A DNA stretch of 64,000 nt. It comes from Myxococcota bacterium (GTDB lineage: Bacteria; Myxococcota_A; UBA9160; JAFDDA01). Below, one piece after another: positions 3,155-25,711 of the stretch; positions within the stretch are counted from its first letter, which is position 1; the number at the start of each line of letters is the position of its first letter. The DNA is taken from contig OZ245817.1 of NCBI GenBank assembly GCA_965228475.1, positions 3,744,001-3,808,000 of the forward strand. The letters are read 5' to 3'. The position numbers and the translations under genes were made by a program. The notes under the pieces were generated by a model that had not been told where the DNA came from, did not search any database, and saw nothing but the letters and a program-made list of their open reading frames with translations.

Positions 3155-3844
3155 TCACGCGGGCGACACGGCGGCAGCCCCGTTCGGGGCGCCGAGGTAG
3201 CTGAGAACGTTGCGGACGAGCTCGTCCGCGATCTCCGAGTCCGAGAGGACGCGCGCTCCCGCGCGCACCTCGCCGAACACGATCATCTGCTGCATGAATC
3301 CGAAGACGAGCTGGACGGCGAGATCCACCGCCAGCGCCGGATCCGGATGGCCGAACTCCTCGCGGCGTGCGTGGAGCAGCGAAACGAAGCGCGCCGAAGC
3401 ATCGCGGCGCAGGGCGCGGACTTCCTGCAGGGTGTCCGCAGTGCCCGTGGCGGCGCGGCCCATGAAGGCGACGAGCAGGGAGCGGCGGTCCTGGAAGACC
3501 TGGATCAGGGTCTCGATGCCGGCGCGAGCGATCTCCGGAATGCCGGCGCCGGCCCAGCGTCCGGGCGCGGCGATCTCGTCGAGCAGGTCGCGCATCTCGG
3601 CGAGGAAGCGCTCCTCGAGGGCGCGCAGCAGCTCGTCCTTGTCCTTGAAGCGGGCGTAGAAGCCGCCCACCGAAGAGCCGGCGCGGGCGACGATCTCCGG
3701 GACCGAGACGTCGGCGATGCCCTTCTCCGCGATCAGCGCCTCGGCCGCATCGAGCAGCCGCTGCAGCGTGGCCTCGCTACGGGCCTGCTTCGGCGCCGCG
3801 ACGGTGCGGAGCTGGGGCGGCTTGCGGGTGACGCGTCGGGACAT
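3155..3844 (-). CDS. TetR/AcrR family transcriptional regulator
   Basis: N-terminal HTH RLLDAAEALIAEKG...VPEIVARAGSSVGGFYARFKDKDELL. Confidence 0.92.
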   Translation of the reverse strand: MSRRVTRKPPQLRTVAAPKQARSEATLQRLLDAAEALIAEKGIADVSVPEIVARAGSSVGGFYARFKDKDELLRALEERFLAEMRDLLDEIAAPGRWAGAGIPEIARAGIETLIQVFQDRRSLLVAFMGRAATGTADTLQEVRALRRDASARFVSLLHARREEFGHPDPALAVDLAVQLVFGFMQQMIVFGEVRAGARVLSDSEIADELVRNVLSYLGAPNGAAAVSPA

Positions 3845-3861
3845 GGGACTTCCTGGCAAGC

Positions 3862-3941: not shown

Positions 3942-5081
3942 TTACGGAGAGGTCTCGGCTGCGGCCTCGGGCGGCCCGGCCGAGGAGACTGCGGGAAGCG
4001 AGGCCGCAGCGGGCACCCAGACCAGGCTCGGAGCCGAAGCCGGCCGGAGCGGACGGGAAGCCGTCTCGGGGGTGGCGGCCCCTTCGCCCTGGTTCGTTTC
4101 GGCGTCGAAGTGGACCTGGCAGCGCAGGCCGGCGGGCAGACCGCGGTCGGGGTTGGGCAGATCGAGCTGGACGCCGAAGGTGCCGCTCGCGCCGTCGAGC
4201 ACCGGGTCCACGATGGCGACGCGCGCTTCGCGCTTCGCATCGAGCGGTGCCTCGGGCGTGATCTCGGCGCGGTCCCCCGGACGCATGCGCCCGAACCAGT
4301 CCGCCGGAAGGATCGCCTCCACGCGAAGCGGATCGATGCGGGCGATCTGGACGATCGTGTCGTCGTCGACCACTTCGCCGACGCCCCGGAGACGGTCGAT
4401 CACGACGCCGGAGACCGGCGCGCGAATCGTGCGGCGTTCTAGGTTGGCGCGGGCCTGCTCGAGCTGGAGGCCCGCGAGCCGGTGGTCTTCGCGTTCGCGC
4501 TCGAGTTCGAGCTCGGCGAGCTCGGCGTTCGCGCGGACTTCTTCCCGGGTGTCGAGGGAGAGGACGTCGCGCGAGAAGAGCTCCTCGGCGCGGTCGAGGC
4601 GCCGGCGGCTCAAGGCGAGCTGGGTCTGGCTCGCCGTGATTCCGTCGGTGCGCTCCGCCCGGGCCTGGGCGACGCGAAGGGCCGCCTCCTCGACGCTGGC
4701 TTCGAGCTTCGCAAGGACCTGGCCTTCTTCGACGTAGTCGCCGCGCTCCGCCGCGACCTCCGCGACCACACCGCTGACCGCGCTGCCGACGTCCACCATC
4801 TCGGTCGGCACGATCATGCAGTCGAAGGCACCGCCCTGCCCCGCCGCCGTCGACGCCGCCATCGATTGCGAGGGAGCCTGCCCGAGATCGTCGAGATCGA
4901 TTCCCGTCACCGTGCGCGGTTCGTCGGCCGTGCGCGCGACGGCCGGAGCGTTCTCCGGGACCGCCTCCTTGCGCGCAAAGCCCGGCATGAGCACGAGGCC
5001 GAAGCCGAGGAAGGCGGCCACGCCGCCGAGGGCCTTCAGGATCTGCTTGCGGCGGTCTTCTTTGGAAGTCGTCTCGTTCAT
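3942..5081 (-). CDS. HlyD/RND-type periplasmic adaptor (membrane fusion protein)
   Basis: N-terminal TM helix; GVVAEVAAERGDYVEEGQVLAKL lipoyl half-motif; coiled hairpin; TIRAPVSGVV; VDPVLDGASGTF. Confidence 0.9.
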   Translation of the reverse strand: MNETTSKEDRRKQILKALGGVAAFLGFGLVLMPGFARKEAVPENAPAVARTADEPRTVTGIDLDDLGQAPSQSMAASTAAGQGGAFDCMIVPTEMVDVGSAVSGVVAEVAAERGDYVEEGQVLAKLEASVEEAALRVAQARAERTDGITASQTQLALSRRRLDRAEELFSRDVLSLDTREEVRANAELAELELEREREDHRLAGLQLEQARANLERRTIRAPVSGVVIDRLRGVGEVVDDDTIVQIARIDPLRVEAILPADWFGRMRPGDRAEITPEAPLDAKREARVAIVDPVLDGASGTFGVQLDLPNPDRGLPAGLRCQVHFDAETNQGEGAATPETASRPLRPASAPSLVWVPAAASLPAVSSAGPPEAAAETSP

Positions 5082-5102
5082 CGCCCTGGCTCGCTTCTTC
5101 GT

Positions 5103-7064
5103 TCACTCCCCCTGGCCCGAGAAGGCGAGCAACGCGTCGAGCTTGCGCTCCGCGTCGAGCAACCTTCGGCGGACCCGGGGCCCCCTGCGCTCTTCGGCGC
5201 GACGGAGCCAGTGCGTGAATCTCAAAGTGAAAGACCCGATGCCGGGCAGCGCGAGGCATGCGGCGATGGCGATGCGAAAAACACGCGGCAAGTTCGGTGC
5301 AAGCAGATCGCCGTCGAGGGCGACGATCTGTTCGCAGCTGCCCGGGGTCCCCTGTCGGGCGCAGCGCCCGAAGAGCTGGCGGTCGATGCGCAGCGACTCC
5401 CCGAGCTCCGTGGCGACGACCGCGAGCCCGCCGCGCTCCGCGACGCCGGGGCCGAGCCGGATGTCCGTCCCGCGGCCGGCCATCCGGGTCGCAACCGTGA
5501 TCCGCCCCGCCTCGCCGGCGGTGGCCACGAGCCCGGCCTCCTCCCGGTCTTGAACGGCGTTGAGCACGCGATGTTCGAGGCCGGCCGCGCCGAGCCGCGC
5601 GCTCAGCGCCTCGGAGGAGGCCACGCTGCACGTGCCCACCAGGACGGGGCGATGCTCGGCCCGGAGCTCGGCCGCGCGCTCGACGACCGCCTCCCACTTG
5701 GCCGCCTCATCGGGTAGGACGCGCAGCCCCCGATCGACGCGCCGGGAGGGCAGCCGGGTCGGGACGGCGACGGTCCGCAGGCGGTAGACGTTCCAGAACT
5801 CCTGGGCGACCTCGCGGGCGGTGCCCGTCATCCCCGCCAGCCGCAGGTAGCGGCGGAAGAAGCGCTGGTAGCTGATGCGCGCGACGGTCTCGCGGCGGGG
5901 CGTCGGCACGAGTCCTTCGCGGACCTCGAGCAGGGCCTGGATGCCGCCTTCGAAGCTCCGGTCGGGCGCGCGGCGGCCGGTGGGCAGGTCGATGATCTGC
6001 AATGCGCCCTCGTGGACCACGTAGTGACGCCCCCGCTCGAAGCTCGTCTCGGCGCTCAGCGCGCGTTCGACCCACGCCTCGCGCACGCGGCGGAGGGCCA
6101 GCGGGCCGTCCCGTGAAGCCGCGAGGGCGTCGAGGCGTGCGCGGCCGGCGTCGAGCAGCTCGACCCGGCCGCGGTCCACGGTGAAGTCCCGGCCTTCCTC
6201 GAGGCTGCGCGCCAGGAAGAGCGCCGAGAGAACGAGCGTCTCGTCGACGTCGGGGCCGGGCCTCGAGAGCAAGAGGGGCGTGCGGGCGTCGTCGATCAGG
6301 ACGGCGTCGGCTTCGTCGACGATCGCGAAGCAGAGGCCGCGCAGCACGGTCTGGCCGGGAGCTTCGGCGCCGAATTGCCCTGCAGCGGTGCCCGCGACCC
6401 GGTCCTGGAGGTAGTCGAAGGCGACCTGCTTGTGCGTCACGTAGGTGACGTCGCAGGCATAGGCCTCCCGGCGCGCGGACCGCTCGGGTTCGCTCTCGAG
6501 GGCCGCGCCCGAGGACAGCCCGAGGCGGGCATAGAGCGGGGCCATGCTCTCGGCATCGCGACCCACGAGATAGTCGTTCGCGGTGATCACGTGGACGGGA
6601 ATGCCGGCGAGCCCGGCCAGCGCCGCGGGAAGGGTCGCCGTGAGCGTCTTGCCCTCGCCGGTCTCGAGCTCCGCCAGGCCCCCGGACATCATCACGCGGC
6701 CGCCGAAGAGCTGGACGTCGTAGTGAGGCGTGCCGAGGGTCCGGCGTGCGGCTTCGCGCACGAGGGCGAAGCCGCGCGGCACGAGAGAACGGTCGAGGCC
6801 GCCGCGGCGCAGGCGACGCCGCAGGTCCGTCACGCGAATGTCGAAGGCCGCATCGGCGAGAGCCTCGAGGCCCTTTGCTTCCGCGTCGACGGCGGCGGCG
6901 AAGGCCTCGATCTCGGAGCGCTTCGCCTGGCGCGGCACCGCCGCGAGCCCGCGAAACCGATGGGCCAGGCGGGCGAGCCACGGCTCCTCGCGGTCCGGGC
7001 GCTCGGGCGCCGGCCCCCGTACCACGCCCGGGCGATCCACGAGCTGCGGCGCTGCGTCAGACAC
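5103..7064 (-). CDS. Accessory SecA-like DEAD ATPase lacking the C-terminal scaffold/wing/two-helix-finger region
   Basis: ELETGEGKTL (Walker A), VHVITANDYL, IVDEADAVLIDDARTPL, GMTGTA, MAGRGTDI, QLFGRCARQG; only 653 aa, ending shortly after motif VI; GTG start overlaps the upstream stop. Confidence 0.9.
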   Translation of the reverse strand: MSDAAPQLVDRPGVVRGPAPERPDREEPWLARLAHRFRGLAAVPRQAKRSEIEAFAAAVDAEAKGLEALADAAFDIRVTDLRRRLRRGGLDRSLVPRGFALVREAARRTLGTPHYDVQLFGGRVMMSGGLAELETGEGKTLTATLPAALAGLAGIPVHVITANDYLVGRDAESMAPLYARLGLSSGAALESEPERSARREAYACDVTYVTHKQVAFDYLQDRVAGTAAGQFGAEAPGQTVLRGLCFAIVDEADAVLIDDARTPLLLSRPGPDVDETLVLSALFLARSLEEGRDFTVDRGRVELLDAGRARLDALAASRDGPLALRRVREAWVERALSAETSFERGRHYVVHEGALQIIDLPTGRRAPDRSFEGGIQALLEVREGLVPTPRRETVARISYQRFFRRYLRLAGMTGTAREVAQEFWNVYRLRTVAVPTRLPSRRVDRGLRVLPDEAAKWEAVVERAAELRAEHRPVLVGTCSVASSEALSARLGAAGLEHRVLNAVQDREEAGLVATAGEAGRITVATRMAGRGTDIRLGPGVAERGGLAVVATELGESLRIDRQLFGRCARQGTPGSCEQIVALDGDLLAPNLPRVFRIAIAACLALPGIGSFTLRFTHWLRRAEERRGPRVRRRLLDAERKLDALLAFSGQGE

Positions 7065-9192
7065 CGAGCTGTCTCAGCAGGAGACGCCGGAGCGAACGCC
7101 AGGCGCGGGGGCCGATCGGCTCGGCGCCGTGGTCGAAGCGGGCGTAGACGCGCTCGCCCGCGGCCACGGCGGCCCCGGCCGGCAGCGCCAGATCGAATTG
7201 GAAGACGGACTCGAGCGTTCGCAGGCCCTCGGGGTCCGACGGGTCCACGGCGAAGGGCCCGCCGCCGGCCGTCCCGAGCGCCGGGCTCGGCAGGCGATCC
7301 CGCGCGCCGGGCACCTGACGCTCGATGCGCGCCGGCAGGACCTGCGCCGGGTCGTGTGCCAGGCGCACCGTCACGGCGCGGGTCCGCTCCCGCAGGCGCC
7401 CTGCATCCTCCTGGGAGACCACGACGCGCGCGCTCGCCTCGGCGAGGTCGACGACGTAGGCCACGGTCTCGCCGCGAGCGACGCGGCGGCCCCGCAGCTC
7501 GGCCCGGTCGCGCGGAACGAACACGCCGGCAACTTCGGCCTGCACCCAGACCTGCCGCGCGCGTTCCCGCGCCCGGGCGAGCGCCGCTTCGGCCGCACGC
7601 AGACGCTCCCGAGCGATCGCGGCCTCGACCCGGTCGGCCCCGCGTGCCGCTTCGAGGCGGCGCGCGCTGATCTCGCGCTCGGCGCGGCGCGCCGCGACCT
7701 CCGCTTCGAGCGCCGCATCGCGGATGCGCAGCAGGCGGGTGCCCGCTTCGACCCTCGCGTGGGGCTCCGCCAGAACCTCGTCGACGAACCCGTCGACGCC
7801 GGCCCGGACGTGGGCCTGCTCGGGCAGCCAGACGACCCCCTCGCCCCGGGTCCGCAGCGGAAGCGGGAGCACGAAGAGGAGTACGAGCACCGCTGCGAGA
7901 GATCCGAAGCTCCCTGCGAGCACCCGGCCCCGCCGCTCCCCGGCAGCGGCGTCCGTCGCGAGGAACCTCACGAACGAAACCAGCGGCCGGCCGATCCGCG
8001 AGTAGACCGTGTAGAGCGCGAGCGTGACCCCGAGCGCGAAGAAGTGGCTCGCCAGGTAGAGGGCGATGGCGAGCATCACCGACACGCCGTAGACGTTCGC
8101 CGCGATCGCGTAGCCGACGAGCCAGCGCGCCTCCCCCGGCGCCGTCTCCGGGAGGGGGAGATCGCGCAGGCCGAGCAGGCGGCGGCGCGCCAGGATCTTC
8201 AGGTACTCGTTGGCGCGCTGGGCGAGGTTCGGGATCTCGAGGGCGTCGGCGAGCACGTGATAGCCGTCGAAGCGGAGCAGCGGGTTGCCGTTGAAGAGCA
8301 GCGTCGAGATTCCGCCGACCAGCATCACGGCGTAGGCCGCGTGGCGGACGGCGCCCGGCTCGACCGCCGCCCAGACGAGCATGGCAAGCGATGCGGCGAA
8401 GAGTTCCACCGCGATCCCCGCCCCGCCGACGATCATGCGGTGGCGCTTCTCGGGAAAGACCGAGGCGGCCGACGCGTCGACGTACGGCACCGGGACGAAC
8501 ACGAGGAAGAGGATGCCCATCTCCCGCACCTCGCCGCCCCAACGCTGCACGGCAAAGGCGTGGCCTAGCTCGTGGAAGAACTTCACGATCGGGTAGACAA
8601 ACCAGAACGCCACGAGGCTCTCGGGCTCGAGCAGCGAGCGGCCGGCTCCCGCCAGCTCGGGCGCGTGGCGCGCCGCCGAGACGCCACCGGCCACGAGAAC
8701 GGCCAGCCAGACCCAGGCGCCGGTTCGCGAGAAGATCGGCCGCGCGAGCCAGGCAAAGCGGTCGAGCGCGGCCTGGGGATCGACGAGCGGAACCCGGAAG
8801 GCGATCGGGTTGCGGCGACCGCGCCGCTCCTTGCGCAGCTCGTCGTCCGTCCGACGGAAGAGGACCGCGGTGTCCGAAGGGAGATCGCCGCGCAGGAGCC
8901 CCGCACCGTGGAGGGTGGCCAGGGCGGCGATCGCTTCGTCCTGGGTCGGCGCGTCGTCACCGAAACGTTCGATGCAGCCGAGCCATGCCGCGTCGATGCT
9001 GCGCTCGCCGTCGAGCGCCTCGGCCAGGGCGCGGACGGCGGGCGTCATGCGATGCACGCGGCCACTCGCCGGATCGCGCACGACCCACCAGACCTCGCCG
9101 CGGTAGCGGTGCCGATGGAAGCGCGCTTCGGCGGCGAGCCGGGGCCGGAGCTCGGCAACGCGGTACCAGGAGCTGCTCTCGAGCGGGTCCAT
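7057..9192 (-). CDS. M50 (site-2) intramembrane metalloprotease fused to an N-terminal PqqD/RRE-like domain and a C-terminal HlyD-like domain
   Basis: HELGH (HExxH) in a TM segment, NGNPLLRFDG (NxxPxxxxDG), several TMs; C-terminal VRAGVDGFVDEV...VEAG barrel-sandwich plus coiled coil. Confidence 0.88.
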   Translation of the reverse strand: MDPLESSSWYRVAELRPRLAAEARFHRHRYRGEVWWVVRDPASGRVHRMTPAVRALAEALDGERSIDAAWLGCIERFGDDAPTQDEAIAALATLHGAGLLRGDLPSDTAVLFRRTDDELRKERRGRRNPIAFRVPLVDPQAALDRFAWLARPIFSRTGAWVWLAVLVAGGVSAARHAPELAGAGRSLLEPESLVAFWFVYPIVKFFHELGHAFAVQRWGGEVREMGILFLVFVPVPYVDASAASVFPEKRHRMIVGGAGIAVELFAASLAMLVWAAVEPGAVRHAAYAVMLVGGISTLLFNGNPLLRFDGYHVLADALEIPNLAQRANEYLKILARRRLLGLRDLPLPETAPGEARWLVGYAIAANVYGVSVMLAIALYLASHFFALGVTLALYTVYSRIGRPLVSFVRFLATDAAAGERRGRVLAGSFGSLAAVLVLLFVLPLPLRTRGEGVVWLPEQAHVRAGVDGFVDEVLAEPHARVEAGTRLLRIRDAALEAEVAARRAEREISARRLEAARGADRVEAAIARERLRAAEAALARARERARQVWVQAEVAGVFVPRDRAELRGRRVARGETVAYVVDLAEASARVVVSQEDAGRLRERTRAVTVRLAHDPAQVLPARIERQVPGARDRLPSPALGTAGGGPFAVDPSDPEGLRTLESVFQFDLALPAGAAVAAGERVYARFDHGAEPIGPRAWRSLRRLLLRQLGV

Positions 9193-10920: not shown

Positions 10921-10994
10921 GCTGCCTGACTCCCCGCGCCGAAGGCGTTCCCCGAGCGGTTTCGGGGGCTTGCTTCGGGATCTGCCTGGGTTCG

Positions 10995-11022
10995 TTTTCG
11001 GCGCAACAAACGGCCTGCTTGA
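10995..11022 (-). promoter_or_regulatory. Sigma-28 (FliA)-like promoter for the leftward MFP/M50/SecA operon
   Basis: Minus strand TCAA-GCAGGCCGTTTGTTGC(16)-GCCGAAAA. Confidence 0.6.
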
Positions 11023-11080
11023 CCGCTGCCTGTGAGGGGAATTCCCGTGGCTTTTCAGAGAGTTCGGGACATTCCGCCCG

Positions 11081-11108
11081 TCAAGGCGCGGGGCCGACGC
11101 CCCGATGA
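11081..11108 (+). promoter_or_regulatory. Sigma-28-like promoter for the giant protein/kinase operon
   Basis: TCAA-N16-CCCGATGA, 38 nt upstream of ATG 11147. Confidence 0.5.
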
Positions 11109-11146
11109 GATAGGGACCCCCGGTTCCGCGGGGATGGGAGAGGTGG

Positions 11147-14100
11147 ATGATGAGGCGCCGGCGCGCCGGTTCGGGCGCAGGCAGAGCACGACGTGCGCGC
11201 GTCGAGGCCCTCGAGCCGCGCATCCTGCTCTCGGCGGACTTCCCGGGCCTCGAGGCCCTGCTCGCTCCGGAGGAGACGGCGCCCCTCGAGCTCCGGATGC
11301 CGGAGACGGACGCCTCGCCGCAGCTCGAGCAGAGCGTCCGGCGCGAACTCGTCTTCATCGACCCGCGGGTCGAGAACGCCGACGCGCTGATCGCGGACCT
11401 GACCTCGAGGAACGATCGCGAGCGGCGGATCGAGGTCGTCACTCTCGACGCCGCGCGCGACGGAGTCGCCCAGATCCGCGACGTGCTCGCTCGATCGGAG
11501 GAACCGGTCGACGCCGTGCACGTGGTCTCCCACGGCACCGACTCGGGCTTCCAGCTCGGCGCGACCTGGCTCACGCGCGACAACGTCGCCGATCACGCAG
11601 ACTCCCTCGCCCGCTGGAACGAAACGCTCGCCGAGGACGCCGATCTCCTCCTCTACGGCTGCAACCTCGCCTCGGCCCCGGACGGCCAGGCGCTCGTCGG
11701 CAGCCTCGCCCGCCTCACCGGCGCCGACGTCGCGGCCAGCACCGACCTCACCGGCTCGGCCCGGCAGGGCGGCGACTGGGAGCTCGAGTACACCGAGGGC
11801 CGCGTCGAGAGCACGGTGGCCTTCTCGGCCCAGGCGCGCACGAGCTGGGCGGGCTTGCTCGACGGCACCGCGATCTGGGCCCAGAACGGGCAGACCACAC
11901 CCCTCACGAGCGCCTTCGACGGAACGAGCTTCGGTCCCACCGGGCCCACCGTCGACGTCGGCCACGAGTGGAACGTGATCGCCGGCGCCGAATCGCCGGA
12001 CCGCGACGAGGCCATCGTCGCCGGCATCGGGGACGACGGCAACCTCGTCGGAATGGTCTGGGACGGAACCGCCTGGACCACCAGCGATCCGCTCGGAATC
12101 GGGGTCCCGAACATCACGGAAACCGAGCGCTGGGCAATCGACGTGACCTACGAATCGGCAAGCGGGGACGCGATTCTGGTTTGGAGCTCAGGGAGCACGC
12201 AGATCCTGGGCCAGGAGATCTGGTACGCGACGTGGAACGGAACGAACTGGAGCCTCCCGAAGGGATTGAACGCTCCGGCCGGGGTCGAGATCAACCAGAT
12301 TCGACTCGCCTCCAACCCCAACAGCGACGAGGTCGTGCTGGTTGCCAGCAACGAGGACTACGAGGACTACGCCTTCGTCTGGGACGGCTCGAACTGGGGC
12401 AACGCGATCACCCTGCACGACGGCAACAACGTGCCCGACAACCAGGACGTCCAGATCGTCTACGAGCAGCAATCCGGCCACGCGATGGCCGTCTGGGCGG
12501 AGAACAACCCCAACCTCCGGTACCGGATCTGGGACGGGGCGAGCTGGAGCGCGGAACAAAACCTGACGAAGCCGGGCGGCGTCAACGGCAAGGTCATCTC
12601 GATCGCGGTCGCCGCCGACCCGACCAGCGATCGCATCGTCCTCGGCGCGGTCACCGAAGACAACGAGACCTGGCTCGCCGCCTGGGACGGAGGCAGCTGG
12701 GACCCTTCCGTCCTGGCCACCTCGGACAGCCCCCACACGGACCGGCTGGGCGTGGCGGTCGCCTTCGAGAGCACGAGTGGCGAAGCCCTCGCCGCCTACG
12801 CGACGACGGCGGACGAGGTGCGGTTCCGGACGTGGAGTACGGGCGGTGGGTGGTCCGGGGAAAGTGTTGGGCCCGACATCGGTGCCCAGCCGAACGTACT
12901 CACGCTCGACGCGGATCCGGAATCCGATTCGATCATGCTCTCGGTCGTCGCGGACGACCGGGACATCTGGTTCGCTCACTGGGACGGCGGCTCCTTCGTC
13001 TCCGCGACGGAGCTCGAGACCGACGCCACGACGAACGCCGGCCAACCCTTCCTGTTCCTCTGGGACGCCGGCGAGACCGCACCCAATACCGCCCCGGTCC
13101 TCACACCCGGCGGGGCTGCCCTCACGGGCATCGACGAAGACGACCTGGCGAACGGCGGCGATCTCGTCTCGGCCATCGTCGGCGCGGCCATTGCGGACCC
13201 CGACGGGGGCGCCGCGGAGGGGATCGCGATCTTCGGGCTCGCCAGCGGCAACGGAACCTGGGAATACTCGACGACGGGTGGGGTCTCCTGGAACGCCGTC
13301 GGCGCGGTCGACCCGACGAATGCCCTCGTCCTCCGCTCGACGGACCGGGTGCGCTTCGTCCCGGACGGCGAGAACGGCACGAGCCCTTCCTTCGACTTCC
13401 GCGCCTGGGACCAGACCGACGGGAGCAGCGCCGGCGACAAGGTCGACGTCACCACGAACGGTGGCACCTCGGCCTTTTCCGCAGCGAGTGATACCGCCAC
13501 GATCGCCGTTGCGAGCGTGAACGACGCGCCCGTGCTCGCCCCGGCTTCACCGGCCCTCGCCGGGATCGCCGAGGACGACCTCAACAACGCCGGAGACCTG
13601 GTCTCGGACCTGCTGGGCGGAACCCTGAGCGACGTCGATGCCGTCACCCTGCAGGGCATTGCGATCACGGCCGTCGCGAGCGGCAACGGCACGTGGCAGT
13701 TCTCGACGAACGGTGGCGGCGCTTGGAGCAACGTCGGCGCCGTGGATGCGAGCAACGCCCTGCTCCTGCGCTCGACGGATCGCGTGCGCTTCGTCCCCGA
13801 TGGCCAGAACGCCGATACGGCCTCCTTCGACTTCCTCGGCTGGGACCAGACCTCGGGCGCCTTCGGCACGAAGGCCGACGCCAGCACCACCGGCGGCACG
13901 ACCGCCTTCTCGGACGACGCCAACACGGCCACCGTCACGGTGACGGCGACCAACGATGCCCCCGTCCTCGCGGCGGCCACGCCCTCCCTCACGACCATCG
14001 ACGAAGACGAGACCGGGAACCCGGGGGACCTGGTCTCGGACATCCTCGGCGGTTCGGTGACGGACGGCGACGCCGGTGCGCTCCAGGGCATCGCCATCAC

Positions 14101-17100: not shown

Positions 17101-19111
17101 CGACACCGTCGCGGACATCGCCGGCGGAGCCATCACCGACGCCGATGCGGGTGCCGTCGAGGGCATCGCCATCACCTCCCTCGTGAGCGGCACCGGGACC
17201 TGGCAGTTCTCGCTGAACGGCGGCGTCGACTGGAACGCGATCCCCGCCGTCAGCAACGCCAACGCCCTCCTGCTGCGTGCCACGGACCGGGTCCGCTTCG
17301 TCCCGGACGGCCAGAACGCCACGAACCCCTCCTTCACCTTCCGCGCCTGGGACCAGACGTCCGGGCTCGCGGGGAACCAGGTGGACGCGGGCGCCGGCGG
17401 CGGAGCCAGCGCCTTCTCCGCGGCGACCGACGTGGCGACGATCGCGGTGACCGACGTCAACGACGCGCCGACCCTCGCCCCGGGTGCCCCCTCTCTCGGC
17501 GTGATGACCGAGGACGCCGGCGCGACCCCGGGAACCCTCGTCGGGACGGTGCTCGGCGCCTCGATGAGCGACATCGACGCCGTCGCCCCGGAAGGCATCG
17601 CGGTGACCGCCCTCTCCGGCGCGAACGGCACCTGGGAGTTCTCCACCAACGGCGGCGCTTCCTGGAACGCCATCGGTTCGGTCGCCGCCAACAACGCCCT
17701 GCTCCTCCGCGACACCGATCGGATCCGCTTCCGCCCCAACGGCACGAACGGGACGGCCGCGACCCTCGGCTACCACGCGTGGGACCAGAGCACCGGTGCC
17801 GCCGGCATCAAGACCAACGCCTCGGTCCGAGGCGGCACGACCGCCTACTCGACCGCCGGCGACACCCTCCAGCTGACGGTCTCGAGCGTCAACGATGCGC
17901 CGAGCATCGGAGGGGCGACCCTGGCTTCGGTGCCCGGCGGAACGGCCGACCCGCCGGGCGCGAGCGTCGCGGGACTGTTCGGCCCGACCCATGCCGATGT
18001 CGACGCCGGCGCGAGCTTCGCCGGCATCGCCGTCGTCGGAAACGGCGCCAACGCAGGCACCGAAGGCACCTGGCAGTACTCGACCGACTCGGGTGCGAAC
18101 TGGTTCGACGTCGGCACGGTGGCCGACGGTGCGACGGCGCTCGCTCTGCCGTCGACGTCCCTGCTCCGCTTCGTTCCCGCCGCGGGGTTCGAAGGCGAGC
18201 CGGCCTCGCTCTCGGTCCGGAGCCTCGACGACACCTTCGCCGGCGCGTTCTCCTCGACCGCCGGTGGCACCGAGAGCCGACAGTTCGCCGACACGACGGG
18301 CGCCGGAGGCACGAGCGCGATCTCCGGCAACGTGGGCAGCCTCGCCACGATGATCGGGGAGGCGGAGCCGCCGCCCGAACCGCCGCCGGCTCCGCCGCCC
18401 GACCTCGAGCCGCCGGAACCCGGAGAGGATCCCGAGCCCGAGGAGGAACCGGAACCCGAACCCGAGGAGACCCCCGAGCCCGAAACCCCGGAGCCGGGCG
18501 ACTCCGGCGCCCTCCCCGGGGATGGGATCATGCCCCCGCCCCTGGATTCGGAAGAGGATGCACCGCCCGCGCCCGAACTCGCCCCGCCGGCGCCCGTCTA
18601 CTCGATCGACACCGACCTCGATGAAGGCGGCACGGACGGAGACCCGGGAACCCGGCCGGGCGACGACTCCTTCCGGCGCGGACCGCGCGAAGCGGCCGGC
18701 GACCGCGTCGAGTTCCGTCAGCTCACCATCGAGACGGTCCGTAACCTCTTGAACGGCGGGTTCGACTTCCTCTCCGAGGGGGCCGGCCTGCTCGAGGAAC
18801 TCGACCGCTTCAAGGAAGAGGCCGAGGTGAAGACGCTGATCGAGAACGCGGTCGCCGGCTCGAGCGCGGCCGTGAGCGCCGGCCTCTCCCTCGGCTACGT
18901 CGTCTGGCTGACGCGCGGGGGCCTGCTCCTCGCGAGCTTCGCCTCCTCGATGCCCGCCTGGCGCCTGGTCGACCCGATCCCGATCCTCGCGAGCCTCGCG
19001 GTGCAGCAGGAGGGTGAGGACGAGTCCCTCGAGAGCCTCGTCGACGCGAGCGCCGAAGAAGATTCCGATGGCGAGGCCGGGCGGCCGAAGAGCCAGGGCG
19101 AGGTCCACTGA
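11147..19111 (+). CDS. Giant (2654 aa) putative surface adhesin: LEPRxLL motif, DUF4347-like domain, Trp-rich WDG repeat region, cadherin/Ig-like repeats, LamG domain, Pro/Glu linker, hydrophobic C-terminal motif
   Basis: [19 protein letters not shown]...VHVVSHG...LLLYGCNLA...ASTDLTG...GGDWELE (DUF4347-like); N(D/T)AP repeat junctions; WHHVAYTFD...LYIDG...[14 protein letters not shown] (LamG); C-term [32 protein letters not shown]. Confidence 0.92.
13085..18350 (+). repeat. Intragenic tandem cadherin/Ig-like repeats
   Basis: Ten N(D/T)AP junctions at 13085, 13520, 13952, 14378, 14855, 16301, 16664, 17027, 17459, 17891 (spacings mostly 426-477 or 363 nt); recurrent GIAIT..GTWQ(F/Y)[22 protein letters not shown]. 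Confidence 0.9.
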
Positions 19112-19113
19112 CC

Positions 19114-22100
19114 ATGCGCCCGATCGGAGCCACCACCCACATCGCCCTCGGCCAGACGCTCCTGCTGCTGAGCGTCCTGCTGGCCGCGCTGCTGATCGGC
19201 CTCGTGCCCGACCGCGAGGCGGCCCTGCGCGAAGGACGGACCGCCCTGGCCGAGTCCGTCGCCATCCAGGCCTCGGCGCTGGTCACGCGCTCGGACCGCC
19301 TCGCCCTCGAAGCCACGCTGCGCGCCACGGTCTCGCGCAACGAGAGCCTCCTCTCCGCCGCCCTGCGGCGCCAGGATGGCGTCGCCCTCGTCCGCGTGGG
19401 CGAGCATGACGCACGCTGGGACGACTCGACCGGCGAGGTCTCGACGGCGACCCAGATCGTCGTCCCGATCTGGTCGGCCGGGCGTCGCTGGGGCCGGATG
19501 GAGCTCCGCTTCGCACCGCTTGCCACCGGGGGGTTCCTCGGCGCCGCGAACAGCCCGACGGCAAAGCTCTTCGCCTTCATCGCCCTCGGAAGCTTCGCCG
19601 TCTTCTTCTTCTACCTGCGGAAGATGCTGCGCCACCTCGACCCCTCCCAGGCCGTGCCGCCGCACGTCCGCTCGGCGCTCGACACGCTCGCCGAGGGTCT
19701 GCTCGTGATCGACATGAAGCAGAACGTGGTGCTCGCGAACCAGGCCTTCGCCGAGCTGCTCGGCGAGCGGCCGGAGGAGCTGCTCGGCCGCAACGCCTCG
19801 GAGCTCGATTGGCACCGGCCCGAGGGCATGCTCGAGGAGGAGCCCTACCCCTGGCTGCGCGCGCTCTCGGAGGGCTGCCCCCAGCGCAACGACCTGATCC
19901 TGTTCCGGAACCCCGAGGGCGAGCTGCGGACGTTCCTCGTGAACTGCTCCCCCGTCCTCGGGAGCGGCGGCGAGTACGGCGGCGTGCTGATCAGCCTCGA
20001 CGACGTGACCCAGCTCGAGGAACACAAGGTCCAGCTGGCCCAGGCGAAGGAAGAGGCGGAGGCCGCGAACCAGGCGAAGAGCGACTTCCTCGCCAACATG
20101 AGTCACGAGATCCGCACGCCGATGAACGCGATCCTCGGCTTCACGGACGTTCTGCGCCGCGGCATGGGCAAGAGCGAGGCCGATCGGCAGAAGCACCTCG
20201 AAACGATCCATGCGAGCGGCGAGCACCTGCTCCAGCTCATCAACGACGTGCTCGACCTCTCGAAGGTCGAGGCCGGACGGCTCGAGGTCGAGCGCATCCC
20301 CTTCGCGCCGCATCTGCTCGTTCAGGAAGTGGCAAAGGTGCTCGGCGTGAAGGCGCGCGAGAAGGGTATCGGCCTCGACGTCGAGTTCAGCGGCGTCATC
20401 CCCGAGACGATGACCTCGGACCCGACGCGCCTGCGCCAGATCGTCACCAACCTGCTGTCGAACGCCATCAAGTTCACGGAGCAGGGCGGCGTCACGGTCC
20501 GCGCGCGGCTCGATCGGGAGGGCCCGGAGCCGGCCTTCGTGCTCGACGTCGCCGACACGGGCGTCGGGATGCCGCCCGAGGCGCTCGACTCGATCTTCGA
20601 GGCCTTCGTCCAGGCGGACACCTCGGTTACGCGGAAGTTCGGCGGCACCGGCCTCGGCCTCGACATCAGCCGCCGCTTCGCCCGCCTGATGGGCGGCGAC
20701 ATCACCGTCACGAGCGAAGTCGGGCGCGGCAGCACGTTCACCGTCCGCCTCGACCCGGGCCCCCTCGAGGAGGTCCGGCTGCTCGATCCGGAAGAAGCGC
20801 AGGCCGCGACGGCGAAGGCCGACGCGGAGGAAGACGGACACTGGGTCTTCCCCTCGCGGCGGATCCTCGTGGTCGACGACGGCGACGAGAACCGCGAACT
20901 CGTCCGGCTCGTCCTGAACGAGGCGGGCCTCGAGGTCGCCGAGGCCGAGAACGGCCAGGTCGGCGTCGACCGCGCCTGCGCCGAGCGCTTCGACCTCATC
21001 CTGATGGACATGCAGATGCCCGTCATGGACGGCTACACGGCGACGGCGACGCTCCGCGAACGCGGGCACGACCTCCCGATCCTCGCCCTCACCGCCAACG
21101 CGATGAAGGGCTTCGAAGAGAAGTGCCTCGATGCCGGTTGCAGCGGCTTCCTGACCAAACCGATCGACATCGACCTCCTGCTGGCGACGCTGGCCGAACG
21201 TCTGGGTGGCGAACGCCGGCCCGGGCCGGCACCGGGCAGCGTGCCTCCGGCGGAGACCGCGGACGCCGCCGCGTCCGAACCGGCGCTCGGGCCGATCGTC
21301 TCGCGCCTCGCCGGGAACCCGAAGCTGCGGCCGACGATCGAGAAGTTCACGGTACGCGTGGCGGAGCAGCTCGACGCCATGGACGCCGCCCTCACGGCGG
21401 CGAACTTCGAGGCGCTCGCGGGCCTCGGACACTGGCTGAAGGGTGCCGGCGGAACCGTCGGGTTCGATGCCTTCACCGAGCCGGCCAAGCGCTTCGAAGA
21501 CCTGGCCCGCGAGAACGATGCCGCGGGGCTCGGGCCGGTGCTCGCCGAACTCCGAGCGCTCGCGGGACGCATCGTCGTCGACCCGGCGCCGGCGACGGCG
21601 GGCGCACCGCTCGTCTCCCGACTGGCTGGCAACCCGAAGCTCCTCCCGACGATCGAGAAGTTCGCGACGCGGATCCAGGAGAAGATCGAAGCGATGCAGG
21701 CCGCGCTCGACGCGGCGGACTTCGAGACCCTGGCCGGCCTCGGGCACTGGTTGAAGGGCGCCGGGGGTACGGTCGGCTTCGACGCCTTCACCGAGCCCGG
21801 CAAACGGCTCGAGGAGCTCGCCCGCGCCGGGCAGGCAGCGGCCCTCGCCGACGTGCTCGCGGAAGTCCGGGCTCTCGCGAGCCGCATCTCGACCCGCCCT
21901 GCGGACGACACCTCTCCGCCCCAGGAGCCGATCGCGACGAGCGGCCCTGCGACGGTCACGGCGCAAACCGCCCCGCCGCTGGCCGAAGGACCCGTCGTCT
22001 CCCGGCTTGCCGGAAACGCCAAGCTCCGCCCCACGGTCGAGAAGTTCGTCGCGCGCCTCGCCCAGCGGCTCGAGGCGATGGAGTCGAGCCTGGCGGAACG

Positions 22101-22293
22101 GGACTTCGAGGCGCTGGCGGGCCACGCCCACTGGCTCAAGGGCGCCGGCGGCACCGTGGGCTTCGATGCCTTCACCGGCCCCGCCGCCGTTCTCGAGCAG
22201 CAGGCCCGGGCCGGCAAGGCCTCCGAGATCGAAGCGACGATCGCCGATCTCCGCAGCCTGGCGGACCGGATCGAACTGGAGCCTTCCCCCTAG
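19114..22293 (+). CDS. Membrane hybrid sensor histidine kinase (2 TM, PAS, HisKA, HATPase, REC, three HPt)
   Basis: [18 protein letters not shown] (H-box), [38 protein letters not shown] receiver; three (G/A)[12 protein letters not shown] repeats. Confidence 0.95.
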
Positions 22294-22326
22294 AACCCGC
22301 GTGCTCCGGTCCGGGTCGCGCGTCCC

Positions 22327-22355
22327 TCAAGTCGGCGCGCCCCGTTGGCCGAAAA
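22327..22355 (+). promoter_or_regulatory. Sigma-28-like promoter before the REC-HPt genes
   Basis: TCAA-N17-GCCGAAAA in the 100-nt intergenic gap; spacer 1 nt longer than the other copies. Confidence 0.45.
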
Positions 22356-22396
22356 GCACCCAGGGGACGCGCGGTCCCCGGAGAGAAGCCGAGACG

Positions 22397-23206
22397 ATGT
22401 CCCAGGGAAACGTGGCCGCCGCCGAAGACGCGCAGGCCTTCCAGAGCGCCACCATCGTCGTCGTCGACGACGAGCCGACCACGGTCGAGATGATCGAGAT
22501 GTTCCTCGAGGCCCAGGGCTACGAGAACGTCGTGGCGCTCTGCGATTCTTCGAAGGCGGTCGAGACGATCCGCCGGTCGAAGGCAGATCTCGTCCTGCTC
22601 GACCTGATGATGCCGGACGTCGGCGGCCTCGACATCCTGCGAACCCTGGCGGCGGACGAGGTCCTCTCCTCGATTCCCGTCGTGATCTTCTCCTCGACGA
22701 CCGACCGCGAAGCCAAGCTCGAAGCGCTCGAACTCGGTGCCGCCGAGTTCCTCGCCAAGCCCGTCGACCCGAGCGAGCTCGCCCTCCGCGTTCGCAACAC
22801 CCTCGCCTACCGCGCCTACCAGCAGCGCTTCGGCCACAAAAAGGGCGCCGCCCATCTGCTCGATCGCATGGACCGTGCCCTGCGCCGGAGCGGCCCGATG
22901 ATCCGCTCCCGGCTCGGGAGCGACCCGCGCTACCGCCCCACGATCGAGCGCTTCGTCGCGCGCCTCGACGAGCGCCTCGACTGGATGGAGAAACGCCTCG
23001 AGAACGAGCAGTTCGAAGAGCTCGCCACCCTCGCCCACTGGCTGAAGGGCTCCGCCACCATGGTCGGCTTCGAAGCGTTCTCCGAGCCGGCGGACACGCT
23101 CGAGATCCTCGCCAAGAAACAGCGCACCGAAGAGGCACAGGAAGTCCTCGAAGAGCTCCACTCCCTCGCGGAGCGCATCGTGGTGGACGACGGCACCGAT
23201 GACTGA
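22397..23206 (+). CDS. Response regulator: receiver plus HPt domain
   Basis: VVVDDEP, LVLLDLMMP, FLAKP; C-term AHWLKGSATMVGF; ATG 22397. Confidence 0.9.
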   Translation: MSQGNVAAAEDAQAFQSATIVVVDDEPTTVEMIEMFLEAQGYENVVALCDSSKAVETIRRSKADLVLLDLMMPDVGGLDILRTLAADEVLSSIPVVIFSSTTDREAKLEALELGAAEFLAKPVDPSELALRVRNTLAYRAYQQRFGHKKGAAHLLDRMDRALRRSGPMIRSRLGSDPRYRPTIERFVARLDERLDWMEKRLENEQFEELATLAHWLKGSATMVGFEAFSEPADTLEILAKKQRTEEAQEVLEELHSLAERIVVDDGTDD

Positions 23207-23966
23207 TCGCGCCCCCGTCGAAGAAGCCGTGCTCGAGAGCCTGAAGGCCGCGCGGATCCTGATGGTCGACGACGAGCCGACCACGCTCGACGTCCTCGAG
23301 ATGTTCCTCGAAGCCGACGGCTATCTCGAGATCGTGAAGCTCTGCGATCCGGGCAAGGCCCTCGAGACCGTGGTCCGGATGGACCCGGACATCGTCCTGC
23401 TGAACCTGATGATGCCCGAGGTGTCGGGCCTCGACGTGCTCGAAGCCATGCGGGCGAACGAGGCGGTGCGCGACATCCCCGTCGTGATCATCACCGGCTC
23501 GGGCGACCCCGAACAGAAGCGCAAGGCGCTCGAAGCGGGCGCCAGCGACTTCCTCGGCAAGCCCGTCGACCCGAGCGAGCTCACGCTCCGCGTAAGGAAC
23601 CTCCTTGCCACGCGGCCGTTCCGGGAGGGCGCCGAGTTCGTTCCGTCGAAGCCGTCCGCGAGCGACGGCCCCTTGTCCGAGGAGCGCGTTCGCCGGATCG
23701 TGGAGACGTTCCTCGACCGCCTGCGCCCGCGCCTCGACGAGATGGACGCCGCCCTGGCCTGCCAGGACTTCGTCACGCTCGCGGAGCTGGCCCACTGGCT
23801 GAAGGGCTCCGCGGGAACCGTCGGGATCCACGACTTCACGGAACCCGCCGAGTCGCTCGAGGAGAGCGCCCGGGTCCAGGATGCACTCGGCTGCGGCACC
23901 GCGATGCGCACCCTGCGCCAGCGCCTCGAGCGTGTCGACGGCCGCCAGGAGTCCACGCCGTGCTGA
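23199..23966 (+). CDS. Atypical receiver (acceptor D->N) plus HPt domain protein
   Basis: MVDDEP, IVLLNLMMP (AAC at 23403-23405), FLGKP; AHWLKGSAGTVG. Confidence 0.9.
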   Translation: MTDRAPVEEAVLESLKAARILMVDDEPTTLDVLEMFLEADGYLEIVKLCDPGKALETVVRMDPDIVLLNLMMPEVSGLDVLEAMRANEAVRDIPVVIITGSGDPEQKRKALEAGASDFLGKPVDPSELTLRVRNLLATRPFREGAEFVPSKPSASDGPLSEERVRRIVETFLDRLRPRLDEMDAALACQDFVTLAELAHWLKGSAGTVGIHDFTEPAESLEESARVQDALGCGTAMRTLRQRLERVDGRQESTPC

Positions 23967-25711
23967 ACCAGGCGCGCGAGGGAACCAGCGAACCGGCCGA
24001 TTGCACCATCATGATGGTCGACGACGAGTCGACCACGCTCGACGTGATCGAGGCCTTCCTCCAGGGCGAGGGCTACGAGCGGTTCGTGATCGTCGAAGAC
24101 TCGCGCGAGGCCATGGACCAGGCCGAGCGGAACCTGCCGGACGTCATCCTCCTCGACCTGATGATGCCCCACGTCGGCGGGCTCGAGATCCTCGAGCAGC
24201 TCCGCGCGCACCCGAGGCTGAAGCGCACGCCGGTGCTGATCCTCACTTCGGCCACGGACCCCGAGACGAAGCTCAAGGCCCTCGAGCTCGGCGTGAACGA
24301 CTTCCTCGCCAAGCCGGTGGACGCGAGCGAGCTCGCCCTCCGGCTCCGCAACACGCTGACCGTGAAGGCACACCAGGACCGGCTGACCTACTACGACGGC
24401 CTGACGGGGCTTCCCAACCGCCTGCGCTTCACCGAGTGGCTCGACGAGTTCCTCGCCGGGCGGGCCGAGTCCGATGCGAACGCCGCCGTCTTCCACCTGC
24501 GGCTCGGCCGACTCCAGGAGATCTCCGACGCCTTCGGCCGCCCGGCGAGCCACGAGGCCCTGCGCATCGTCGCCGACCGCCTCCACGCGAGCCTCCAGCC
24601 GGGCGAGATCATGGGGAACCCCAACGCCCCCGAGCTACAGATCCTCTGCCAGGCGGGAGAAGGCGAGTTCCTGATCCTCCTCGAGGAAGCGGGCGACCCG
24701 GAGCGCGCCGCGCGCATCGCACGCCACGTCCTCGACCAGCTCAAGATCCCGGTCAACATCGGCGGCGAGGAGCTCATGGTGACGGGGCACCTGGGTGTCA
24801 CGCTCATCCCCGACGACGGCGAAGACGCCGAGACGCTGCTCGACAACGCGAGCCTCGCGCTCTCGCACGCCCAGGGCCTCGGCGGTTCGGGCTTCCAGTT
24901 CCACGACGAGACCCTGAACGCCGAGACCCGCGAGCGGCTCCACCTCGAGAGCCTCCTGCGCGGCGCCGTCGAGCGCGAAGAGGTCCACCTGCACTACCAG
25001 CCGAAGGTCGACGTCGAGAGCGGGCGGGTGGTCGGCGCCGAAGCGCTCATGCGCTGGCACAGCCCCGTGCTCGGCCAGGTCCCGCCCGACCGCTTCATCC
25101 CCGTCGCGGAGGAGTCGGACCTCATCGTGCGCCTCGGCTCCTGGGCCATTCGCACCGTCTGCTGGCAGATCCGCACCTGGCTCGATGCCGGCCTCCCGCC
25201 GATCTGCGTCGCGGTGAACGTCTCGAGCAAACAGTTCCGCACGGGCGACCTCGCGAGCGTCGTGCGCTCGTCGCTCGAAGACTTCCGTCTCGAAGGCCGG
25301 CACCTGGTGATCGAGCTGACCGAGAGCATGATCATGGAAGACCCCGCGGAGACCGCGCGCATCCTCGATGGCCTGAAGGCGCTCGGCGTCGCGATCTCCC
25401 TCGACGACTTCGGCACCGGGTACTCCTCGCTCAGCAACCTGAAGCGCTTCCCGATCACCGAGCTCAAGATCGACCGCTCCTTCGTGAAGGGCGTGCCCGA
25501 CGATTCGGACGACGCCGCCATCACCGCCGCGGTGATCGCGATGGGGCACGCGCTCGGGATGCGGCTCGTCGCCGAGGGCGTCGAGACCGAGGCCCAGGTC
25601 GACTTCCTGCGTGAGCGCGGCTGCGAGATCTACCAGGGATTCCTCTGCAGCCGGCCCCTGGCGGCCACGGACTGGCCGATGCTGCTCAGTCAGCTCGGCA
25701 CCGAAGACTGA
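23960..25711 (+). CDS. REC - degenerate GGDEF - EAL c-di-GMP phosphodiesterase
   Basis: Intact receiver; DGLTGLPNR but the A-site reads AGEGEF; EAL motifs YQPKV, EALMRW, VNVS, ELTES, DDFGTGYSSL, KIDRSFV, EGVET. Confidence 0.92.
   Translation: MLNQAREGTSEPADCTIMMVDDESTTLDVIEAFLQGEGYERFVIVEDSREAMDQAERNLPDVILLDLMMPHVGGLEILEQLRAHPRLKRTPVLILTSATDPETKLKALELGVNDFLAKPVDASELALRLRNTLTVKAHQDRLTYYDGLTGLPNRLRFTEWLDEFLAGRAESDANAAVFHLRLGRLQEISDAFGRPASHEALRIVADRLHASLQPGEIMGNPNAPELQILCQAGEGEFLILLEEAGDPERAARIARHVLDQLKIPVNIGGEELMVTGHLGVTLIPDDGEDAETLLDNASLALSHAQGLGGSGFQFHDETLNAETRERLHLESLLRGAVEREEVHLHYQPKVDVESGRVVGAEALMRWHSPVLGQVPPDRFIPVAEESDLIVRLGSWAIRTVCWQIRTWLDAGLPPICVAVNVSSKQFRTGDLASVVRSSLEDFRLEGRHLVIELTESMIMEDPAETARILDGLKALGVAISLDDFGTGYSSLSNLKRFPITELKIDRSFVKGVPDDSDDAAITAAVIAMGHALGMRLVAEGVETEAQVDFLRERGCEIYQGFLCSRPLAATDWPMLLSQLGTED

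Follow-up and report, generated by a model that had tools for sequence, protein, structure and literature searches.

A giant LEPR-XLL protein beside a putative export cassette without an ABC transporter, its C-terminal tail genetically paired with a c-di-GMP-linked membrane sensor

We report on a locus in a 64-kb stretch of a Myxococcota genome (hereafter the window; C1:3,744,001-3,808,000, where C1 is the only contig of this 5.0-Mb genome). Nine open reading frames (ORFs) at 3942..25711 form two divergent runs separated by 226 nucleotides (nt). The leftward run encodes a putative export cassette; the rightward run encodes a 2654-residue surface protein (the giant), whose unannotated C-terminal domain we call giantC or the tail, followed by a membrane sensor kinase and regulators related to cyclic di-GMP (c-di-GMP). 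Two observations are central. The giant, which begins with a LEPR-XLL leader, is encoded beside a conserved core of GAF-HlyD, RRE-M50-HlyD and HlyD proteins, joined in this lineage by a SecA paralog; and the tail is genetically locked to one family of membrane sensors with c-di-GMP outputs.

We believe that a tethered-adhesin signalling system, in which the sensor reads the state of the exported giant through its retained tail, is the best explanation of the locus as a whole, and we hold it to be somewhat better than an even bet. Its parts differ in strength: the tail and the sensor are very probably coupled in function, the giant is probably exported by the adjacent cassette, and export with the N-terminus first and a tether in the inner membrane has about an even chance of being right. 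The export half of the locus is already known in silico; the signalling link between tail and sensor is the new part.

Results

The giantC and sensor profiles draw on 23 loci of 22 genomes together with the window; the exporter reference set comprises 80 related genome loci, and giantC/sensor neighbourhoods were first fetched from 50 of these exporter genomes. The two parts pair in Gammaproteobacteria, where 401 genomes were searched for the tail and 400 were scored for the sensor: giantC occurs in 24/401 and the sensor in 24/400, the 24 genomes are identical, neither part was found by itself, and only 2 training genomes are among the positives. In 221 genomes of the window's own phylum giantC was found in 9, the sensor in 10 and a full-length M50-HlyD protein in 14, nested in that order; in Desulfobacterota both parts occur in the same 2 of 146 genomes, one of them being the search centre. 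When metagenomes were searched by the sensor alone, a giantC gene lay directly upstream in 74/80 loci, or in 64 of the 68 left after de-replication at 90% (a nine-sequence alignment gave 353 relatives, of which 80 were kept; the metagenome search with a single sensor protein as query returned zero relatives).

The two parts are usually neighbours as well. Of the first 30 loci fetched, 27 have a homolog of the sensor module as the next gene after the giant, mostly with a 4-nt overlap. Among the 29 sensor genes of Gammaproteobacteria, 23 have giantC directly upstream, 3 have a membrane fusion protein (MFP) of the cassette beside them, and 3 have neither (one with 87 nt of upstream sequence); all 13 sensor genes of the own phylum follow giantC (4) or a cassette MFP (9). 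The pairing persists when the output domains are swapped, and also where the gene order differs and the sensor lies within the export operon; the copy numbers of giantC and sensor usually match. Two cultured isolates, Desulforhopalus sp. IMCC35007 and Candidatus Litorirhabdus singularis IMCC14734, have tail and sensor alike.

The same searches relate the pair to the exporter. M50-HlyD was found in 19/22 tail-positive against 1/22 tail-negative Gammaproteobacteria, the latter a partial match. Conversely, of 50 exporter-positive genomes (mostly fragmented assemblies; 2 recur in the own-phylum sample) 27 have both parts (22 of them in training), 4 the sensor only, 1 the tail only, and in 18 neither was found, so that the exporter does not require the signalling module. 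A second class of cargo is present at 11/80 loci (L013, L017, L027, L034, L037, L050, L054, L059, L073, L077 and L079), where a giant with 7-31 GGxGxD motifs ends just before GAF-HlyD, often with SapC nearby; neither giantC nor the sensor was found in 9/9 tested genomes of this class (three of one genus). By contrast, of 23 tested loci whose giant has DUF4347, 21 belong to genomes that have tail or sensor. One cargo subclass is thus marked by LEPR, DUF4347, tail and sensor; LEPR also heads cassette giants lacking giantC (L030, L033).

The tail comprises about 125 residues, laid out as an amphipathic helix, an uncharged segment of about 22 residues (the median uncharged run in the family is also 22), Arg-Gly-Gly, a second hydrophobic segment, the motif Pro-x-Trp-xxx-Asp-Pro and a charged end. 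It matched no Pfam or NCBIfam family, its atlas search returned unnamed clusters only, with a low recognition score, and neither giantC nor the sensor had a match in the plasmid collection. The family nevertheless comprises 3,385 clusters (50% identity) at E<=0.001. It is C-terminal in all 150 listed proteins, with 18-89 residues following the Trp-xxx-Asp-Pro motif; a LEPR start was found in 24 of the 32 listed giantC proteins of at least 900 residues, and the other 8 begin inside repeats. The structure model is a long helix (pTM 0.36) without a globular plug domain.

At the other end of the giant, residues E23 and R25 of the leader are invariant in 29 sequences. The leader has no hydrophobic core, and hydropathy revealed no hydrophobic N-terminal segment; a single isolated GGxGxD (residue 1117) was found, with no RTX array and no PF00353 match. 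The initial annotation, made from the sequence, had described a giant with neither a Sec signal nor RTX repeats in a locus devoid of an ABC ATPase, and this holds, there being no ABC or TolC gene within 3942-25711. It also placed and ordered the nine ORFs of the two tightly packed operons correctly. The low-complexity linker ahead of the tail recurs: in 28 relatives the 120 residues before giantC are Pro/Glu-rich, with 12.7% Pro versus 4.1% further upstream.

DUF4347 has a caspase-like alpha/beta fold with His129-Gly and Gly-Cys172 motifs, as in clan CD; His129 and Cys172 are found in at least 90% of 29 sequences. The best structural match is 9qpe_G (Z 13.6), followed by the SAVED-CHAT structure 8tl0 (Z 9.6, root-mean-square deviation 3.0, 136 aligned residues), and C11 proteases, legumain and caspases match more weakly, at Z 6-7. 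Judging from the model, DUF4347 is a candidate self-processing cysteine protease. The chain 9qpe_G belongs to a type VI effector, and both may be cysteine proteases. In the accessible parts of two papers DUF4347 is termed uncharacterised or described differently.

The kinase begins 2 nt after the giant, and the first REC-HPt gene lies 103 nt after the kinase. In a language-model feature space the nearest neighbours of the sensor module are GAPES4, sCache_4, CHASE8 and LapD_MoxY_N (0.94-0.96), and its periplasmic domain is probably of the single-Cache type, a judgement drawn from these features only; the sensor profile against sequences of solved structures gave a best E of 0.9. The REC-GGDEF-EAL protein is predicted from its motifs to be a phosphorylation-controlled c-di-GMP phosphodiesterase.

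The output of the sensor varies, and it is linked to c-di-GMP wherever it was resolved. Among 97 non-redundant adjacent pairs it is a kinase in 62, GGDEF in 26 and unresolved in 9. In 20 regions chosen to sample the non-kinase forms we found 7 PAS-GGDEF, 12 PAS-GGDEF-GGDEF-EAL and 1 kinase, and the PAS-GGDEF and PAS-GGDEF-GGDEF-EAL forms all carry GGEEF. A GGDEF-EAL gene follows the kinase in 40 of the 42 non-redundant loci with 2.2 kb of downstream DNA; with the common tail-sensor adjacency, this does not refute the reading of the initial annotation, which was to fall if the kinase and phosphodiesterase genes were not conserved beside homologous loci.

Two further claims of that annotation proved to be local to the window. 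Breakdown of c-di-GMP was rejected as the constant output: the EAL-type motif is present in 50/50 partner regulators, GG[DE]EF is intact in 25/50, and the sensor of other lineages forms one protein with an intact GGEEF cyclase; the link is therefore to c-di-GMP, not to its breakdown specifically. Likewise rejected as a family trait was the multi-HPt phosphorelay. By motif count one HPt is present in 82/120 relatives, two in 30, none in 7 and three in 1, and a standalone REC-HPt gene was found in 1/42 relatives. The five HPt domains of the window (three in the kinase and two in the REC-HPt proteins) are a local expansion.

In the export operon the genes are spaced by 0, -8 and 21 nt in the order GAF-HlyD, M50-HlyD, SecA-like, HlyD, an order that is kept across the 80 genome loci. 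The M50-HlyD gene is directly upstream of the SecA-like gene in 76/80 (the remaining 4 have <200 nt of upstream sequence), which puts this adjacency above chance. GAF-HlyD starts with GTG, preceded by a ribosome-binding-like GGGGAG; a 796-residue reading of this gene was rejected, as it overlaps the giant gene and the homologs align from the GTG at 10920. In the M50-HlyD protein both HExxH and NxxP..DG are intact and lie in membrane segments (HExxH in 69/73 relatives, NxxP..DG in 65/73). Cytoplasm-side domains precede the membrane helices of the M50 and GAF adaptors, and all three HlyD-domain proteins score below the TIGR01843 cut-off. Promoter and terminator scans of the locus were uninformative, no sigma-70-type consensus being found in the 226-nt divergent region. 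A search of sequencing runs listed no RNA sample that contains the sequence.

A duct and a type I transporter were sought elsewhere in the genome. It has five outer-membrane efflux protein (OEP) genes, none above the TIGR01844 cut-off; four of them lie within RND-type operons and one stands alone. The latter, a TolC-like gene at C1:1931947-1933593, converges on genes that we take to be secD/secF-like and is the best match (24%) of the cassette-linked TolC proteins; on this sequence evidence it is the best candidate for the duct. Five full-length ABC exporters are present, at 176-308 bits, and none in this single-contig genome exceeds the PrtD or LssB cut-offs of type I transporters (TIGR01842, best 230 of 510 bits; TIGR03375, best 308 of 693). 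SapC and DUF3467, neighbours of some cassettes, had no tblastn match in this genome. Among the 80 cassette loci an HDOD-domain gene is near 7 (L021, L025, L031, L047, L055, L065 and L070; e.g., L021:4130-5002), SapC near 6, an OEP gene near 6 and DUF3467 near 3.

The SecA paralog retains intact Walker A, DEAD and motif VI; in relatives the SecA motifs are kept in 70-75 of 75, with DEAD and motif VI in 75/75 scored. It is 38% identical to the canonical full-length SecA, present as one separate copy, and 42-65% identical to the 80 short paralogs. A SecA2/SecY2 system is not indicated (TIGR03714, 410 of 930 bits; TIGR04221, 364 of 725; no SecY2 or Asp neighbours). The paralog was found in 13/13 exporter-positive genomes of the own phylum and in only 7/22 tail-positive Gammaproteobacteria. 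Seven SecA-less regions that were fetched have HlyD immediately after M50-HlyD and show no adjacent type I ATPase, and four metagenome loci are alike. The constant core of the exporter consists of the three adaptors, RRE-M50 and the LEPR giant. At L313 and L314 (G652:C60, G367:C8) the SecA paralog lies away from the cassette and adjoins, in convergent orientation, the end of the operon of giant, kinase and EAL genes.

Table 1. Features of the locus in window coordinates
Feature	Position	Strand	Evidence
HlyD/RND-type MFP (periplasmic adaptor), 379 residues, one N-terminal membrane helix	3942..5081	-	PF16576, PF13437 and TIGR01730 above cut-off; hydropathy
Secondary SecA, 653 residues: DEAD motor and preprotein-binding domain	5103..7064	-	PF07517, PF21090, PF01043; P-loop; no SecA_SW match
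PqqD-like (RRE-like) domain, M50-type intramembrane metalloprotease and HlyD, 711 residues, about six hydrophobic segments	7057..9192	-	PF05402 (E=0.001), PF02163 (E=0.001) and NF041824 (E=1.6e-46), all below cut-off
GAF, membrane helix and HlyD adaptor, 575 residues	9193..10920	-	PF01590, PF13437, TIGR01730; start from sequence and homolog alignment
Divergent intergenic region, 226 nt	10921..11146	none	Sequence
Surface protein, 2654 residues: LEPR-XLL leader, DUF4347, cadherin/Ig-like repeats, LamG, Pro/Glu linker, conserved C-terminal domain	11147..19111	+	
LEPR-XLL leader (residues 18-31), Arg-rich stretch ahead	11198..11239	+	NF012209, 29.5 bits (cut-off 17)
DUF4347 (residues 68-238), caspase/CHAT-like fold	11348..11860	+	AlphaFold model with pLDDT>90 over the domain; conservation
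Pro/Glu/Asp-rich low-complexity linker (residues 2409-2520; 33 Pro, 20 Glu and 14 Asp in 112 residues)	18371..18706	+	
Unannotated C-terminal domain giantC (residues 2530-2654)	18734..19108	+	
Membrane hybrid histidine kinase: sensor module, PAS, HisKA, HATPase, REC, three HPt; phospho-sites intact	19114..22293	+	
Unannotated sensor module (residues 1-186): helix, periplasmic domain of about 120 residues, helix, conserved Leu-Asp-Pro linker	19114..19671	+	Hydropathy, alignment
REC-HPt, 269 residues, Asp and His intact	22397..23206	+	
REC-HPt, 255 residues, Asn in place of the phospho-accepting Asp, HPt His intact	23199..23966	+	
REC-GGDEF-EAL: degenerate GGDEF (GEGEF), EAL catalytic motifs intact	23960..25711	+	

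The closest relatives of the window genes carry Myxococcota or Deltaproteobacteria labels. Directly after the export operon are genes for a TetR regulator and a ferritin-like di-iron protein (window 2023-3859, minus strand), and a short flagellin with the N- and C-terminal helical domains only is encoded at 138-1271 (minus strand). A possible glycan-modifying cluster (28227-32740) comprises a Stf0 sulfotransferase, an unannotated 779-residue ORF, a second sulfotransferase and a hexapeptide acyltransferase; a further GGDEF protein adjoins a sigma-54 activator (37601-39755). Elsewhere in the genome there are two neighbouring ORFs of about 4,000 residues without LEPR (C1:1592234-1616186), and three large ORFs (C1:2832525-2837036, 4099496-4111091) terminate in a Cys-Gly-Leu-Gly motif, a hydrophobic stretch and an Arg cluster, presumably resembling a C-terminal sorting signal.

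Discussion

We presume the following order of events. The PqqD-like domain of the M50 protein would bind the LEPR leader, and export would begin at the N-terminus, whereas a type I system starts from the other end. Here the chain would be fed by the SecA paralog, and by the housekeeping SecA or another energy source where the paralog is missing; the three adaptors would form the periplasmic bridge to a TolC from another locus. Removal of the leader would fall to M50 or to the caspase-like domain DUF4347. Export would halt at the C-terminal domain, with the uncharged helix left in the inner membrane, the periplasm spanned by the Pro/Glu linker, and the repeats and LamG being displayed outside while the tail is kept inside. 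The tail would then serve as the protein ligand of the sensor, which pulling, cleavage or loss of the adhesin would alter. The signal here would pass from the kinase His to REC, to HPt and to the REC of the EAL protein, tuning the breakdown of c-di-GMP; in other lineages the same sensor would drive a fused cyclase or cyclase-phosphodiesterase.

A number of results weigh against this scheme. Physical contact of tail and sensor is suggested by the gene pairing only: mutual information between the proteins (97 pairs) peaked at z 6.57 against 5.2-6.6 in scrambled pairings and gave no contact signal; the mirror correlation of tail and sensor (0.71) equals that of the PAS control (0.73), and co-inheritance therefore explains it. 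The prediction of a complex of sensor and PAS with giantC scored 0.00 in two runs, with the fold of the partner uncertain, and counts neither way. In two single-contig genomes a gap of 20 kb or a long stretch separates the sensor from the giant (for G101/G177 inside one cluster, for G657 1.7 Mb), and related genomes are non-independent samples, for which reason no P value is given. As a membrane anchor giantC is marginal: its median best 19-residue Kyte-Doolittle value is 1.53 versus 2.0-2.5 for the sensor helices, and the charge after the helix is mostly acidic (median -4), not positive-inside. The sensor module had no Pfam match above cut-off in 24 members (best E 0.006-0.05, in 1-2 of 24), and the M50 and PqqD assignments fall below the curated cut-offs.

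Aligned to canonical SecA, the SecA paralog ends early in the scaffold helix and is without the wing, two-helix finger and zinc tail. Judging from this alignment, it would lack the C-terminal domains that push the substrate in canonical SecA, which weakens its role as a motor. The paralog was not found by query in 12/19 exporter-positive (M50-HlyD) Gammaproteobacteria, and a SecA family search of three genomes with SecA-less cassettes, one of them a single 4.7-Mb contig, returned the housekeeping SecA only; SecA as the obligatory motor is thus rejected.

The tail could instead report release. It would be a substrate of M50, or would act in the periplasm as a plug retaining the adhesin in TolC, like a LapA retention module turned round; the periplasmic domain of the sensor would bind the free or cleaved tail, and the sensor would report completed export or shedding, not force. 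The uncharged tail segment is marginal and rich in Gly, Ser and Ala, as in substrates of intramembrane proteases, which have helix-breaking segments of this composition; the catalytic motifs of M50 are conserved, and the language-model features of the sensor resemble those of LapD- and CHASE8-type periplasmic domains that bind proteins. In the accessible part of the RsgI report described below, RsgI is freed by an M50 protease after loss of its ectodomain. However, M50-HlyD is present in the 18 of 50 genomes where giantC was not found, and LEPR heads the giants of L030 and L033; because of these two facts the leader appears to be the constant partner of M50. Nor does the tail model contain a globular plug domain, and we consider a release reporter unlikely, if worth keeping in mind.

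A two-step route through SecYEG keeps the coupling of tail and sensor and changes the export: the SecA paralog or the housekeeping SecA would deliver the giant, the lateral gate would insert the tail, and M50-HlyD, the adaptors and TolC would move the periplasmic part out. SecYEG releases stop-transfer helices laterally; the SecA-less cassettes have no replacement ATPase nearby, and the paralog retains its preprotein-binding domain. The leader without a hydrophobic core, the paralog without the domains that dock on SecY, and the cytoplasm-side domains of the M50 and GAF adaptors, which suggest recognition in the cytoplasm, nevertheless make this route rather improbable. A further reading dispenses with the tail-sensor contact altogether and proposes co-regulation only, with the sensor reading a small molecule or an envelope cue, the adhesin sharing its operon, and the tail acting as a sorting or anchoring signal. 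Residue covariation no higher than in scrambled controls agrees with this, as do the translational coupling that favours inheritance of the genes as a block and the PAS domain as a second, independent input. Yet the pairing holds across samples of three phyla, in either of two gene orders and with each of three output architectures, copy numbers usually match, and operon inertia rarely yields a sample of 401 genomes with neither part alone; we give co-regulation little credence. Ordinary type I secretion, in which an ABC transporter from elsewhere would export the giant C-terminus first through these adaptors with the tail as secretion signal, appears to us very improbable. Some cassette giants do have GGxGxD arrays with SapC and TolC neighbours, the genome does encode the five ABC exporters, and a Vibrio LEPR giant has C-terminal RTX domains (according to the accessible part of its source); but none of these exporters reaches the type I cut-offs, the giant here has no RTX array, and the N-terminal leader, the RRE-M50 fusion and the pairing with the sensor would be left unexplained.

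The tethered-adhesin system that we prefer is set below against known systems, as given in the accessible portions of the cited sources. The four-gene export locus is that of Kamneva, Poudel and Ward 2015 (PMC4452313), a paper correctly cited in the initial annotation: both have GAF-HlyD, M50-HlyD, HlyD and a SecA_DEAD protein lacking SecA_SW, with no ABC gene, and OEP is only sometimes adjacent there. In the window this SecA stands beside a separate canonical SecA in the genome; the search for a TolC and a separate secA suggested by that annotation yielded the OEP genes and the single canonical copy described above. The annotation had further assigned to SecA the place of the ABC ATPase and to M50 that of the inner-membrane component. 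This is essentially the proposal of Kamneva and co-authors (SecA_DEAD as the ATPase, M50 as the pore); the locus is as they describe it, while the motor part is weakened by the frequent absence of the paralog, which defines their locus and is dispensable in many genomes here. The accessible text of that paper mentions no substrate, LEPR leader, C-terminal domain, sensor, c-di-GMP link or functional experiment, and 9 of the 19 supplements likewise gave no match; the others could list such neighbours.

The Pseudomonas fluorescens Lap system (LapA/LapBCE/LapD/LapG; bioRxiv 10.1101/198937) works with an ABC transporter and a retention module at the N-terminus; release of the adhesin is under c-di-GMP control. 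Our locus resembles it in a giant repeat adhesin with a predicted terminal retention element, a candidate TolC-type duct, a c-di-GMP link and a periplasmic sensor-like domain. It differs in having no ABC transporter and an N-terminal leader (the N-terminus is LEPR plus DUF4347, and no gene of the locus reaches the LapD cut-off); the retained end would be the C-terminal one, and with a kinase or c-di-GMP enzymes as neighbours information would run outside-in, as opposed to inside-out in Lap. In YfiBNR of Pseudomonas aeruginosa (PMC4887326, PMC4655355) an inner-membrane diguanylate cyclase likewise has a periplasmic domain controlled by a partner protein; the partner in that case is a repressor, small and soluble in the periplasm, that a lipoprotein sequesters, and not the tail of an exported giant. 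Genes resembling YfiR or YfiB did not come to light at the locus, where no search aimed at them was made.

RsgI/SigI with its SEAL domain and RasP (bioRxiv 10.1101/2023.06.27.546760) shares with the proposed system a membrane anchor, an extracellular binding part, a flexible linker, self-processing, a site-2 (M50) protease and proposed mechanosensing. It is Gram-positive and Sec-exported, with a sigma factor output on the same polypeptide, whereas here the output is on a separate membrane protein and no SEAL domain was detected. A 2026 preprint (bioRxiv 10.64898/2026.03.19.712371) assigns the LEPRxLL giants Cag_663/Cag_665 of Chlorobium chlorochromatii to a Sap-like type I route, C-terminus first, which counts against export from the N-terminus. 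Those giants have an N-terminal LEPRxLL and full-length transcription, and TolC-like and SapC genes lie near them, which some of our loci also show; they differ in beta-helical shafts and MtxA-like C-termini, and the accessible text does not mention M50 and names SecA once. The classical type I hallmarks, a dedicated ABC transporter and C-terminal GGxGxD repeats, are both missing from our locus. We found no experiment on any member of the locus family and no prior description of the tail-sensor pair in the literature searched, a search whose coverage left out most subscription papers.

Conclusions

More generally, we propose with reserve, as rather less than an even chance, that the locus represents an undescribed class of transenvelope receptors of Gram-negative bacteria, comprising thousands of sequence clusters. 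A giant adhesin would be exported N-terminus first by a leader-guided machine without an ABC transporter, and its inner-membrane tail, tethered through the duct, would be the dedicated ligand of the adhesin's own sensor, converting attachment or force into a c-di-GMP signal.

The finding provides cargo and output for a secretion locus for which no experimental follow-up was found since 2015, a candidate function for two unannotated families (tail and sensor) and a candidate protease role for DUF4347. The parts are small, with 14 residues in the leader, 125 in the tail and 186 in the sensor module, and each can be defined by a profile. Even if the genes are only co-regulated, the tail is a reliable marker of a c-di-GMP-linked class of adhesins. 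Two open questions, how surface contact is sensed and passed to c-di-GMP and how the largest bacterial proteins are exported, are joined at one locus, which suggests an undescribed way for cells to sense the state of their own adhesin; if true, it would be the outside-in mirror image of the Lap system.

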